Assembly (NCBI GenBank): GCA_964016885.1
Contig: OZ024757.1
Span: forward strand, 13,578,001 to 13,642,000
DNA from: Eledone cirrhosa
Lineage: Eukaryota
Length of the DNA stretch: 64,000 nucleotides
Reading direction: 5' to 3'
Part shown: positions 52,136 through 59,661 of the stretch, piece by piece
How the letters are laid out: every line of letters begins with the position of its first letter
Numbering within the stretch: position 1 is the stretch's first letter
The notes under the pieces: generated by a model
The model's input: the letters and a program-made list of their open reading frames with translations, nothing else
The model's database searches: none
What the model was told of the DNA's origin: nothing
Position numbers and translations under genes: made by a program

Positions 52136-52320
52136 TAGATATATATAGATAGATAGATAGATATTGTCTGGAACTAGCTGTTGAAATGGCAAGAGCTCAG
52201 CCGTCGGGTCCCATCTCTTTATAATATAACCATACTCTACTACCCCCAAGCATAGAGTACTCTGTTGAGTAATGGTCAAACCAGTTTCAAACTGATTCTA
52301 TCTTGATTTATACATTTATA

Positions 52321-52738
52321 GTGGAGTCTGTGCTGCTGTACGGGTCTGAGATTGGACACTGACCAAGAAACTCACTCAGATGGTGGATGGGTGCTACACG
52401 AGAATGCTGAGGATGGCTCTGAACATTAATCAGTATACACTGAGTTTGAAGAACTCAGAGCTGTACGGGAGCCTCCCAAAAGTCAGCTCGAGAGTAGCAC
52501 AGAGATGACTGGGGTTAGCTGGACATGCTCACTGACATCCAGAGTTGACATTGCACTCAGTGCTCCTGTGGGAGCTCCTACATGGACACACTGGAAGAGG
52601 AAGACCGAGGTTAATGTATGTTGATGTCCTAAGGATAGACACTGGTCTGTTGGAGACGCAGGACATGGCAATGATAATGAGGGACAGAGACCGCTGGAGA
52701 GAACTCGTCCATGGATCTCAGGGATTTTATCCGCCATA
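52321..52738 (+). pseudogene. Dead RTE/RTEX-like LINE C-terminal fragment (also 54178-54597, 56073-56491, 57969-58387)
   Basis: VESVLLYGSETWTLTK...DGCYTR.LR...ELYG.LP...LAGH...GRGRP...DRDRWR with two in-frame TGA stops. Confidence 0.85.
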
Positions 52739-52983
52739 GAGACATATATATATTTTTAAAGACAAAATTAATTGCATATTAAGTGATGAAACATGTTAAT
52801 GCTTGGAATAAAACCTTATTATATCTCTTATCCATGTTAATCATCCTTTTACCTGTTATATATATATATTCAGTTCAAGGATATAACAAACAGGTACAAA
52901 AAGTCTTATTAGTTTCATGCTTTTTATGGAAAAGGAGAAAGAAATAGCAGCCAAATCCCCCTCAAGTATATATATGTTAAAAG

Positions 52984-53150
52984 CAATGTAGCGTGACTAT
53001 ACTACTCAGTAACAGTCTTGTTGCTCCAAGTCCTGTGTCACACAGTTGATGTCCCACACTTTCACAGAGTACCAGCTACAAAACTGTCCTCAATATATTT
53101 GGTGTAGTGACCCCTGTAAAGCTGCTTACGCAGGGGTCATAGTGTGGGTT
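52984..53150 (-). ncRNA. H/ACA U1-psi6 guide-like RNA, tandem copy 1
   Basis: H box ACAUCA, same pocket (CAGG/AGUAU), ACA box, CCCACACU/AGUGUGGG stem. Confidence 0.72.
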
Positions 53151-53821
53151 GCTTGATTAAAAACAAACAAAAAAAGAAGAAAAAAAAGAAACATATTTTA
53201 AAAAATGTGTAAGATATATCCTCTCAGACAGTTTCTCTCTCAACACATCTATGCTCGGTCGTTCACGCACATTGACATTGCACATCCAACAGAGCATGCT
53301 TGCCTCATTTCTCTCCAGCAGTCGCATATCGCCATTTAATTATATATATATATTGTAATATAGTCTAAAATTATATATAATCACAATTCAATGTTTATAT
53401 ATATTGTAATATAGTCTAAAATTATATATATATATATATATAATCACCATTTAATGTCTATTTTCCATGCTTGCATGGATAGACAGGGTGTAATGTTATG
53501 CAGTTAGAAGGGCCAGGTAATGTTTTGCTCAAATGTTCCGTTTTTTCCCCCCTTAGTTTGCTGTATTAAATTACTGACATACCGAAGCCTAACATGTTTC
53601 AATCAGTAAAGCAATGAAGGAAATAAACTACCAATATTTTCCATGCCACTGCTTTCTTGAACTATATTTAATGTTACAGTAACACAACATATATATATAT
53701 TTTTTTTTCAAAGAATCGCTGTTCTTAAAATGCATGGGCCAATGACCTCCACACATCCCAATAACCACCCTCCCCTACCACCAGAAAACGTATAAATACC
53801 ACCATATCACAATGACAGTCA

Positions 53822-53871
53822 GCTTTCCTGATGATTTCCTTAGAATGAAACAGTTCTAGTCCTGTAGAAGC
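53822..53871 (+). ncRNA. Hammerhead-like motif, one per tandem unit (also 55691-55740, 57585-57634, 59325-59374)
   Basis: UUC-CUGAUGA-U-UUC-CUUA-GAA-U-GAAA-CAG-loop-CUG-UA-GAAG; intact core but weak stem II with U-U closing mismatch. Confidence 0.45.
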
Positions 53872-54122
53872 CATTTCTATATTTTTTATATATATATATA
53901 TATATATGAAAATGATAGAAGATATATACATATATATATATATAGAGATATATATAGATAGATAGATAGATAGATAGATATTGTCTGGAACTAGCTGTTG
54001 AAATGGCAAGAGCTCAGCCGTCGGGTCCCAACTCTTTATAATATAACCATACTCTACTACCCCCCAGCATAGAGTACTCTGTTGAGTAATGGTCAAACCA
54101 GTTTCAAACTGATTCTTTCTTG

Positions 54123-54172
<50 letters not shown>

Positions 54173-54845
54173 TTATAGTGGAGTCTGTGCTGCTGTACGG
54201 GTCTGAGACTTGGACACTGACCAAGAAACTCACTCAGATGGTGGATGGGTGCTACACGAGAGTGCTGAGGATGGCTCTGAACATTAATCAGTATACACTG
54301 AGTTTGAAGAACTCAGAGCTGTACGGGAGCCTCCCAAAAGTCAGCTCGAGAGTAGCACAGAGATGACTGGGGTTAGCTGGACATGCTCACTGACATCCAG
54401 AGTTGACATTGCACTCAGTGCTCCTGTGGGAGATCCTACATGGACACACTGGAAGAGGAAGACCGAGGTTAATGTATGTTGATGTCCTAAAGACAGACAC
54501 TGGTCTGCTGGAGACGCAGGACATGGCAGCGATAATGAGGGACAGAGACCGCTGGAGAGAACTCGTCCATGGATCTCTGGGATTTAATCCGCCATAGAGA
54601 CATATATATATTTTTAAAGACAAAATTAATTGCATATTAAGTGATGAAACATGTTAATGCTTGGAATAAAACCTTATTATATCTCTTATCCATGTTAAGC
54701 ATCCTTTTACCTGTTATATATATATATATATTCAGTTCAAGGATATAACAAACAGGTACAAAAAGTCTTATTAGTTTCATGCTTTTTATGGAAAAGGAGA
54801 AAGAAATAGCAGCCAAATCCCCCTCAAGTATATATATGTTAAAAG

Positions 54846-56737: not shown

Positions 56738-56904
56738 CAATGTAGTGTGACTATACTACTCAGTAACAGTCTTGTTGCTCCAAGTCCTGTGTCACACAAT
56801 TGATGTCCCACACTTTCACAGAGTACCAGCTACAAAACTGTCCTCAATATATTTGGTGTAGTGATCCCTGTAAAGCTGCTTACGCAGGGGTCATAGTGTG
56901 GGTT
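56738..56904 (-). ncRNA. H/ACA U1-psi6 guide-like RNA, tandem copy 3
   Basis: As copy 1. Confidence 0.72.
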
Positions 56905-57712
56905 GCTTGATTAAAAACAAACAAAAAAAGAAAAAAAAAGAAACATATTTAAAAAAATGTGTAAGATATATCCTCTCAGACACAGTTTCTCTCTCAACAC
57001 ATCTATGCTCGGTCGTTCACGCACATTGACATTGCACATCCAACAGAGCATGCTTGCCTCATTTCTCTCCAGCCGTCACATATCGCCATTTAATTATATA
57101 TATATATTGTAATATAGTCTAAAATTATATATAATCACAATTCAATGTTTATATATATTGTAATATAGTCTAAAATTATATATATATATATATATATAAT
57201 CACCATTTAATGTCTATTTTCCATGCTTGCATGGATAGACGGTGTAATGTTATGCAGTTAGAAGGGCCAGGTAATGTTTTGCTCAAATGTTCCGTTTCCC
57301 CCCCCCCCCCCCCCCCTTAGTTTGCTGTATTAAATTACTGACATACCGAAGCCTAACATGTTTCAATCAGTAAAGCAATGAAGGAAATAAACTACCAATA
57401 TTTTCCATGCCACTGCTTTCTTGAACTATATTTAATGTTACAGTAACACAATATATATTTTTTTTTTTTTTCAAAGAATCGCTGTTCTTAAAATGCATGG
57501 GCTAATGACCTCCACACATCCCAATAACCACCCTCCCCTACCACCAGAAAACGTATAAATACCACCATATCACAATGACAGTCAGCTTTCCTGATGATTT
57601 CCTTAGAATGAAACAGTTCTAGTCCTGTAGAAGCCATTTCTATATTTTTTATATATATATATATATGAAAATGATAGAAGATATATACATATATATATAT
57701 ATAGAGATATAT

Positions 57713-57743
<31 letters not shown>

Positions 57744-57937
57744 TTGTCTGGAACTAGCTGTTGAAATGGCAAGAGCTCAGCCGTCGGGTCCCAACTCTTT
57801 ATAATATAACCATACTCTACTACCCCCCAGCATAGAGTACTCTGTTGAGTAATGGTCAAACCAGTTTCAAACTGATTCTATCTTGATTTATATATATATA
57901 TATATATATAAATATGAAATATCGTTTCATTTTTTCC

Positions 57938-57971
<34 letters not shown>

Positions 57972-58633
57972 GAGTCTGTGCTGCTGTACGGGTCTGAGAT
58001 TGGACACTGACCAAGAAACTCACTCAGATGGTGGATGGGTGCTACACGAGAGTGCTGAGGATGGCTCTGAACATTAATCAGTATACACTGAGTTTGAAGA
58101 ACTCAGAGCTGTACGGGAGCCTCCCAAAAGTCAGCTCGAGAGTAGCACAGAGATGACTGGGGTTAGCTGGACATGCTCACTGACATCCAGAGTTGACATT
58201 GCAGTCAGTGCTCCTGTGGGAGCTCCTACATGGACACACTGGAAGAGGAAGACCGAGGTTAATGTATGTTGATGTCCTAAAGACAGACACTGGTCTGTTG
58301 GAGACGCAGGACATGGTAATGATAATGAGGGACAGAGACCGCTGGAAAGAACTCGTCCATGGATCTCAGGGATTTTATCCGCCATGGAGACATATATATA
58401 TTTTTCAAGACAAAATTAATTGCATATTAAGTGATGAAACATGTTAATGCTTGGAATAAAACCTTATTATATCTCTTATCCATGTTAATCATCCTTTTAC
58501 CTGTTATATATATATATATTCAGTTCAAGGATATAACAAACAGGTACAAAAAGTCTTATTAGTTTCATGCTTTTTATGGAAAAGGAGAAAGAAATAGCAG
58601 CCAAATACCCCTCAAGTATATATATGTTAAAAG

Positions 58634-58800
58634 CAATGTAGTGTGACTATACTACTCAGTAACAGTCTTGTTGCTCCAAGTCCTGTGTCACACAATTGAT
58701 GTCCCACACTTTCACAGAGTACCAGCTACAAAACTGTCCTCAATATATTTGGTGTAGTGACCCCTGTAAAGTTGCTTACGCAGGGGTCATAGTGTGGGTT
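58634..58800 (-). ncRNA. H/ACA U1-psi6 guide-like RNA, tandem copy 4
   Basis: As copy 1. Confidence 0.72.
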
Positions 58801-59661
58801 GCTTGATTAAAAACAAACAAAAAAAAAAAAAAGAAACATATTTTTAATGTCTATATATATATTGTAATATAGTCTAAAATTATATATAATCACAATTCAA
58901 TGTTTATATATATTGTAATATAGTCTAAAATTATATATATATATATAATCACCATTTAATGTCTATTTTCCATGCTTGCATGGATAGACAGGGTGTAATG
59001 TTATGCGATTAGAAGGGCCAGGTAATGTTTTGCTCAAATGTTCCCCCCCCCCCCCTTAGTTTGCTGTATTAAATTACTGACATACCGAAGCCTAACATGT
59101 TTCAATCAGTAAAGCAACGAAGGAAATAAACTACCAATATTTTCCATGCCACTGCTTTCTTGAACTATATTTAATGTTACAGTAACACAATATATATATA
59201 TATATTTTTTTAAAAGAATCGCTGTTCTTAAAATGCATGGGCCAATGACCTCTAGCCATCCCAATAACCAACTTCCCCTACCACCAGAAAACTTATAAAT
59301 AACACCATATCACAATGACAGTCAGCTTTCCTGATGATTTCCTTAGAATGAAACAGTTGTAGTCCTGTAGAAGCCATTTCTATATTTTTATATATATATA
59401 TATATATATATGAAAATGATAGAAGTTTAACTGTATGGCAGAAAATCCTTATAATACCTACACTACTTTTCTTAAGTATAGAAATAATGGTCTTACTGGT
59501 CTTAACTAGTAAGATCGTATATATAGATATCTAGTTGACAGCCAAGAGAAAAGAGTACTCAATACCAAAGTAGAGTTTAAATATTCATTTTATTATGGCT
59601 AAATAGTGATTCCTGTTACTTTGGAGTTTCACAGAAACGCTATTTAGACTTAATAAAATGA

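Follow-up and report, generated by a model that had tools for sequence, protein, structure and literature searches.

A predicted guide RNA for U1 uridine 6 in five copies within a long IMP3 intron of the octopod Eledone cirrhosa

How does a single intron come to hold five copies of one predicted guide RNA, and does the repetition matter for the modification that the RNA would direct? We address this question at a locus of Eledone cirrhosa (assembly GCA_964016885.1, contig OZ024757.1, positions 13,578,001 to 13,642,000 of the forward strand), referred to below as the window, that is, the whole 64,000-nt stretch analysed, from whose first letter our coordinates count. An earlier note on this DNA had described a four-fold tandem amplification of a cassette carrying a box H/ACA RNA, predicted to guide modification of the U1 small nuclear RNA (snRNA), together with a diverged fifth copy nearby. 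The reading we regard as probable is that a five-copy predicted guide for U1 uridine 6 resides in intron 2 of IMP3, its four tandem copies being passengers of a recent, neutral duplication of 1.8 kb.

All five RNAs lie on the minus strand, with exact 3′ ends (ACA plus 3 nt) at 49876, 52984, 54846, 56738 and 58634. The older paralog, which resembles a small Cajal body-specific RNA (scaRNA), occupies 49876..49998—the 5′ end, on the 49998 side, being placed from the lower stem—and carries an H box ACAUUA (49944-49939), a loop CGAG resembling a Cajal body (CAB) box (49912-49909) and the ACA (49881-49879). The tandem element is 124 nt long and 85-87% identical to it. Copy T1 (52984..53107; H box ACAUCA at 53052-53047, CAAG at 53020-53017, ACA at 52989-52987) has a private lower-stem change from U-A to U-G at 52992; T2 (54846..54969), T3 (56738..56861) and T4 (58634..58757) are identical in sequence. 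Every copy has an ANANNA H box in the hinge and ends 3 nt after an ACA, and the pocket strands and ACA are the same in all five, as the earlier note had held. It was likewise right that the H box changes within ANANNA, from ACAUUA in the older copy to ACAUCA in all four tandem copies. The 3′ loop, CGAG in the older copy versus CAAG in the tandem copies, retains A3 and G4 as in a scaRNA CAB box, and no conserved CAB box was seen in the 5′ loop.

In the 3′ hairpin, an internal loop separates a lower stem of 7 bp from an upper stem of 10 bp, and folding with an open pocket yields -17.0 kcal/mol; the 5′ hairpin is weaker (-9.2 and -14.8 kcal/mol). Across the three distinct copies, pairing is kept in 51 of 51 stem cells, and two of the 17 stem pairs vary, each on one side only. 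The claim that 3′ stem changes keep pairing therefore stands, but not its direction: since organism E (below) has the tandem-type G, the change probably ran from G-U to A-U in the older copy. Directly 5′ of both paralogs are inverted repeats, long for the older copy (50020-50110; -48.5 kcal/mol over 130 nt) and short for the tandem copies (53105-53145), with three arm positions differing in organism B. They may represent what is left of small transposons, or serve as signals for processing.

When the 3.0-Gb genome was searched at the DNA level, the basis on which distant paralogs elsewhere were judged, the RNA had five matches, all at this locus. A covariance model built from the three distinct copies and run over 194 kb recovered the same five and one further match (16.4 bits, E 0.63). 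Rfam at E up to 10 gave only noise over 49700-53300; 12 flanking loci had a single tRNA-like Rfam match, and a 23-nt core pattern had no match among metagenome contigs.

What might this RNA modify? The U1 genes of this genome have the canonical 5′ end in all six loci read, and the 3′ pocket pairs with it around uridine 6, five pairs before and four after it, all nine of Watson-Crick type. The target uridine stands 14 nt from the ACA, within the 14-16 nt separating box and uridine in the bipartite pockets of H/ACA RNAs. In T4, the pocket strands 58686-58682 and 58653-58648 are predicted to pair with U1 8-11 and 1-5, respectively. Among 1952 uridines of the U1, U2, two U5, small-subunit (SSU) and large-subunit (LSU) ribosomal RNAs of this genome, U1 uridine 6 fits best, and nine pairs were reached by 6 of 300 shuffled target sets and by 6 of 2000 shuffles of the snRNAs alone. 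Boxes, pairing and shuffle controls together bear out, as a prediction, the identification as a box H/ACA guide for pseudouridylation of U1 uridine 6.

The 5′ pocket has no convincing target in SSU, LSU, U1, U2 or U5 RNA, the RNAs that were compared. Its best snRNA site, U5 position 74 (3+5 pairs), was rejected, as 53 of 300 shuffles did equally well and the site is at odds with the stem geometry. As a separate observation, U1, U2 and U5 are each encoded in long tandem arrays, with periods of ~2.67, 2.22 and 0.87 kb (array loci G000:C2:180.97-181.00 Mb, C1128, C3:307.35-307.45 Mb and C9:32.79-32.83 Mb), and the ribosomal RNA genes of this genome are long, with an SSU match of 2876 nt and LSU matches of 5114 and 6342 nt.

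Pseudouridine 6 of U1 is the target of human U109/SCARNA18 (PMC7960923). Like the RNA described here, SCARNA18/U109 (RF01233) is an intron-hosted box H/ACA RNA of ~125-140 nt with a CAB box and duplicates that were kept, and the two agree in their target, here a predicted pairing. They differ in the host, UCHL5 for SCARNA18 (PMC1687206) versus IMP3, and in the presence here of five copies in one intron. Mammals have further guides for U1 position 6, namely U109B and other copies (PMC1687206); Xenopus has two scaRNA18 copies 3.6 kb apart on the same strand (PMC6984369), and in chicken, paralogs arise chiefly by tandem (cis) duplication within the host gene (PMC2653536). Drosophila pugU1-6 (scaRNA:PsiU1-6) is likewise an invertebrate intronic H/ACA scaRNA for U1 position 6, a modification shown in Xenopus oocyte extract, but has an additional 28S target in yeast assays (PMC3884663), whereas no convincing second target emerged here. 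SCARNA16/ACA47 (RF00424) also is an H/ACA scaRNA acting at the U1 5′ end, but on position 5, whereas the present pocket fits position 6; RF00424 has no match at the locus, and its best genome match (25.4 bits against a cut-off of 65) is elsewhere. TMEM167A, again not IMP3, is a further host for SCARNA18/U109. With an octopod candidate for the guide of U1 pseudouridine 6, one that Rfam misses, this modification becomes testable in the group.

The host gene, missing from the earlier note, is IMP3. The exon directly to the left of the window matched IMP3 structures, the first exon lies 84.7 kb to its right, and close relatives of the protein include those of Octopus and Argonauta, in keeping with an octopod. 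With three octopod IMP3 proteins as queries, all seven coding exons map to the minus strand on either side of the window. Intron 2 (minus strand, about 136 kb) contains the whole window (1..64000), with exon 2 ending 70.8 kb past the right end and exon 3 starting 1.15 kb before the left end. All five RNAs are thus sense-intronic in IMP3 intron 2, in a ribosome-assembly gene. We found no literature report of IMP3 as a host of small nucleolar RNAs (snoRNAs) or scaRNAs, and, among the octopus snoRNA papers listed, no title concerning such an RNA or array. A nested protein-coding host was considered and rejected: among the minus-strand frames of at least 42 aa in the intron, 271 of 291 were scanned with Pfam (the 20 skipped being repeats in units 2-4), and two matched, a reverse transcriptase and a PHD piece resembling that of a long interspersed nuclear element (LINE) in the window; short or non-coding exons would escape such a scan.

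How old are the copies? Contigs of public sequencing runs from other organisms were aligned at 80% likeness, letter differences for organisms B, D and E being counted among the rows listed. A 271-nt contig of organism D aligns over 58636-58744 only and a 606-nt contig of organism E over 58643-58742 only; as both alignments stop near the RNA ends, the RNA alone is conserved there. In organism E, nine of ten counted substitution places fall within the RNA and none of the ten listed within a pocket strand; the changes within the RNA affect N positions of the H box, the hinge, the loop, the outer end of the stem, a stem position turned from A-U into G-U and a position in the 5′ hairpin. The H box reads ACAUUA in B, ACAUAA and ACAGUA in two runs of D and ACAGUA in E, conforming to ANANNA throughout. 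Organisms B, D and E share the 3′ loop CGAG with the older copy, which indicates that CGAG is ancestral and CAAG derived.

Organism B has both paralog types: one contig of the old type (depth 41.4), one of the tandem type that includes 39 nt of the 5′ flank (depth 20.2) and a third, overlapping contig (depth 31.9), next to a single-copy neighbour contig of depth 14.9 with 32 differences in 281 nt. Organism E has one contig at single-copy depth and seemingly one RNA copy. The two paralogs would accordingly predate the split of this lineage from organism B, and the four-fold array would be younger than that split. The earlier proposal of an old duplication kept under selection is borne out by the two types in B and by the conservation of the RNA alone in D and E. 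Retroposition is a less likely source of the old pair, whose members lie 3.1 kb apart on the same strand and share bases beyond both ends. Their flanks, claimed to be unrelated, mostly resemble each other little more than by chance (equalled by 12 and 37 of 500 shuffles), apart from those few shared bases beyond both RNA ends. A run C had no contig over the older copy, and run X5 covered almost nothing of it or of the donor region discussed below; X5 was not used as evidence. Between the two paralogs lies a stretch (51040-51340) whose minus strand has an acidic open frame; it resembles what remains of a DNA transposon and is matched by a single organism B contig at 89% identity.

The tandem part comprises four units of 1.68-1.83 kb over 52163-59425, each with one H/ACA RNA (3′ ends 52984, 54846, 56738 and 58634), in agreement with the units of ~1.7-1.9 kb described before. 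Excluding junction microsatellites, unit 1 spans 52163..53921 (1759 nt), unit 2 53980..55786 (1807 nt) and unit 3 55849..57680 (1832 nt); unit 4 (57743..59425, 1683 nt) lacks 138 nt at 58843, and its right end is more diverged than any other. A (TA)n/(GATA)n microsatellite forms the junction at 53922..53979; the other two junctions and the left edge of the array have it in the same form, and the right end of the unit closes on a GATAGA-like word. Such ends would fit a first duplication driven by microhomology. Each unit is mostly transposon debris, including a broken piece from the 3′ part of a LINE reverse-transcriptase gene (52310..52740, plus strand, seen in translation) and further high-copy repeats. 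The fragment matches the LINE open reading frame of the window weakly (E 0.001) and is high-copy by depth in all four sequencing runs compared.

Pairwise, the units differ by 0.94-2.31% substitutions and are mutually distinct, with mosaic variant columns: units 1 and 2 agree against units 3 and 4 at some, and units 1 and 4 against units 2 and 3 at others. At the right end of unit 4, 15 of 236 columns are variable versus 2 of 223 adjoining the RNA. Both the mosaic and this diverged end would be expected from unequal exchange and conversion. Variable columns make up 2 of 125 within the RNA versus 50 of 1478 in the rest of the unit (p = 0.43), so that selection on the tandem RNA copies is not detectable relative to the rest of the unit, in a comparison of little power.

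The low divergence between units, together with the copies and read depth, bears out a recent expansion to five guide copies. Depth itself comes from one short-read run, X1, of the same organism at low coverage, possibly the assembly's own sample, in which contig depth is no direct copy number. Tandem-type contigs have depths of 15.9 and 13.4, the older copy 6.86 and the right flank 5.54, giving ratios of 2.3-2.9x and 2.0-2.4x against 3.2x and 2.6-2.7x expected from word multiplicity for four units. A single unit would give 1.0x. The ratios are a hint of more than one unit, though possibly of a number below four or of a heterozygous array. This shortfall is what an overstated or polymorphic copy number would produce, if each chromosome had two or three units or if the haplotypes differed, one with four units and one with fewer, and the divergence between units is of allele-like size. 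Yet all four units are distinct with mosaic variant patterns, a letter private to units 2 and 3 (58761) was found in an X1 contig, and depth at such low coverage, perhaps from the assembly's own sample, is a poor measure of copies. We consider an overstated or polymorphic number of units unlikely.

The favoured account, an array of passengers, would run as follows. The RNA would be cut from the IMP3 pre-mRNA intron, bind the H/ACA core proteins and pair with 5+4 bases around U1 uridine 6. An old local duplication would have given two paralogs 3.1 kb apart before the organism B split, both under purifying selection. In this lineage the CAB loop of the second paralog would have changed from CGAG to CAAG before the paralog was caught in a duplication ending in GATA microsatellite, from which unequal crossing-over and gene conversion would have made about four units. 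The extra copies would be redundant and U1 modification little changed. That the tandem RNAs are passengers is suggested by the LINE fragment and high-copy repeats in the unit, the microsatellite junctions, the mosaic variants and an RNA conserved no better than its surroundings. The duplication itself is in line with well-described sno/scaRNA paralog turnover, ordinary guide-RNA evolution; for this reason, and as CAB boxes are dispensable for modification by fly scaRNAs (PMC3884663), a large effect on splicing is unlikely.

Several observations weigh against this account. As regards neutrality, 125 RNA columns are too few to reveal selection, so that the neutral result reflects weak power, and both changes within the tandem RNAs are tolerated ones. 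The array is the only kb-scale tandem duplication in the 194 kb scanned, and it has the RNA inside; shorter tandem repeats are plentiful in IMP3 intron 2. For a 124-nt RNA in a 1.8-kb unit, with two such RNAs per 136 kb, this mildly disfavours pure chance. As regards the number of units, the depth ratios are about 0.8 of the four-unit expectation. As regards the RNA as such, none of the 17 stem pairs shows a compensatory change among the three distinct copies, whole-RNA folding energy is no better than that of shuffles (z -0.85 to +0.11 in all five folds), and the organism E piece differs at 12 letters, nine of them among those listed. Rfam has no match in the window at gathering threshold, and the RF01233 covariance model (cut-off 43 bits) none in the window or among 43 scored genome candidates; the RNA accordingly resembles SCARNA18 by predicted function, is not assigned to RF01233 and may or may not share descent with it. 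Finally, a single intron houses all the copies, at 51-60 kb from the 3′ splice site, against the rule of one RNA per intron (PMC1821038), and an unseen non-coding host for the RNAs is possible.

Would the extra copies alter the dose or place of the guide? Both had been suggested. Given that the copies share one intron and that the RNA is conserved no better than the unit around it, a dosage effect on U1 modification is not supported. Animal introns usually hold one such RNA (PMC1821038), and two snoRNAs in one intron can yield long non-coding transcripts whose ends are snoRNAs (sno-lncRNAs), such as the H/ACA-ended SLERT (PMC11028025); by this norm and precedent, five copies need not mean five-fold guide. 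With respect to localisation, CAB boxes follow the consensus ugAG, in which A3-G4 are crucial, and telomerase RNA altered at position 2 showed a mixed Cajal-body and nucleolar signal (PMC2172171). With the position-2 change derived here and A3-G4 retained, it is plausible that CGAG and CAAG paralogs localise differently. Fly scaRNAs function without a CAB box or Cajal bodies (PMC3884663, PMC6298559). The array offers a natural experiment on the release of multiple H/ACA RNAs from a single, very large intron, and on whether localisation shifts with a CAB position-2 change.

The shared intron also raises the prospect that exonuclease trimming of the debranched intron halts at the outermost H/ACA particles and leaves scaRNA-ended long RNAs, of up to about 8.9 kb or of 2-3 kb between neighbours, instead of five free guides. 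The architecture permits this, the five copies being sense in IMP3 intron 2; sno-lncRNAs including SLERT set the precedent (PMC11028025), and the two-paralog state predates the array. Nevertheless, organism E seemingly has a single copy, so that the free guide would be the ancestral product, which the locus must continue to supply, snoRNAs are known to occur in intronic clusters (PMC11028025), and a long, repeat-rich spacer would be prone to internal cleavage or recursive splicing. On balance we hold such an outcome to be unlikely. In its fullest form, the IMP3 intron would release scaRNA-ended long noncoding RNAs, a five-module H/ACA chain with two Cajal-body signals (CGAG and CAAG) and thus an invertebrate counterpart of SLERT, which strikes us as improbable. 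SLERT-like RNAs share with this locus several H/ACA RNAs per excised intron (PMC11028025), but a long product would here be a prediction, its ends being copies of one scaRNA. Were it true, the old paralog pair would bracket a 3-kb spacer, the length of the RNA would vary with copy number, and a ribosome-assembly gene would be connected to U1 modification.

Finally, the earlier note had seen in each unit an exon-intron cassette with a minus-strand donor ~430 nt from the RNA. The donor-like 9-mer UCG|GUAUGU is at 53577..53585 on the minus strand and recurs at 55452, 57346 and 59085. Its GU is indeed at 53582-53581, but the distance to the RNA 5′ end is ~475-485 nt in units 1-3 and ~330 nt in unit 4. 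If each unit were a cassette of a non-coding host, nested or alternative, every copy would have its own intron, the usual animal arrangement (PMC1821038), and dosage could have risen under selection; non-coding exons leave no protein trace and would escape Pfam scans. The 9-mer has G-1, A+3, G+5 and U+6, the donor region is array-specific with four matches in the genome, and the exact 7-mer occurs 21 times sense versus eight antisense in the intron. This sense excess is, however, clustered in tandem repeats. Against the U1-pairing consensus, complementary to the U1 end of this genome, the 9-mer scores 6 of 9, a score equalled or exceeded by 781 of the intron's 11123 sense GT sites; each unit has eight such sites sense and 6-8 antisense, and G|GTANGT occurs 27 times sense and 21 antisense, about 0.3 per unit length. 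Acceptors are scarce, with one pyrimidine-rich AG in the 318 nt upstream of the donor (257 nt off, inside a high-copy repeat) and one between the RNA and the next donor, inside the LINE fragment. The older copy lacks the donor region, IMP3 is complete without the donor, and no IMP3 coding exon contains it. Contigs of B, D and E (at the above likeness) leave the donor region (59008-59197) uncovered, a gap that was not used as evidence. With a donor at chance frequency, no good acceptor and a complete host gene without it, the 9-mer is likely a chance site and the cassette very doubtful.

IMP3 has further features of its own. Its 182 codons are spread over about 176 kb (G000:C18:13550932-13726802). 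The public Octopus IMP3 model P0001 turns into unrelated sequence straight after exon 2, hinting at a long intron there in Octopus too. By the U12-type consensus, intron 4, which measures about 20 kb, has ends of minor-spliceosome type (L012:8105-8097, minus strand, and about 22.25 kb to the left of the window), with the donor GTATCCTTT and the branch site TCCTTGAC about 15 nt before the AG. Within the window, a LINE with an unbroken frame of 1136 codons (21668-25075, plus strand) encodes endonuclease, reverse transcriptase and PHD, with related pieces at 48601-48726 and L006:1200-3000. A second LINE type is represented by a 512-codon frame with reverse transcriptase and zf-RVT (34700-36235, minus strand). 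Two minisatellites, at 10336-11183 and 43183-43964, have seven copies each of 123-nt and 111-nt units, respectively, and derive from the same source sequence.

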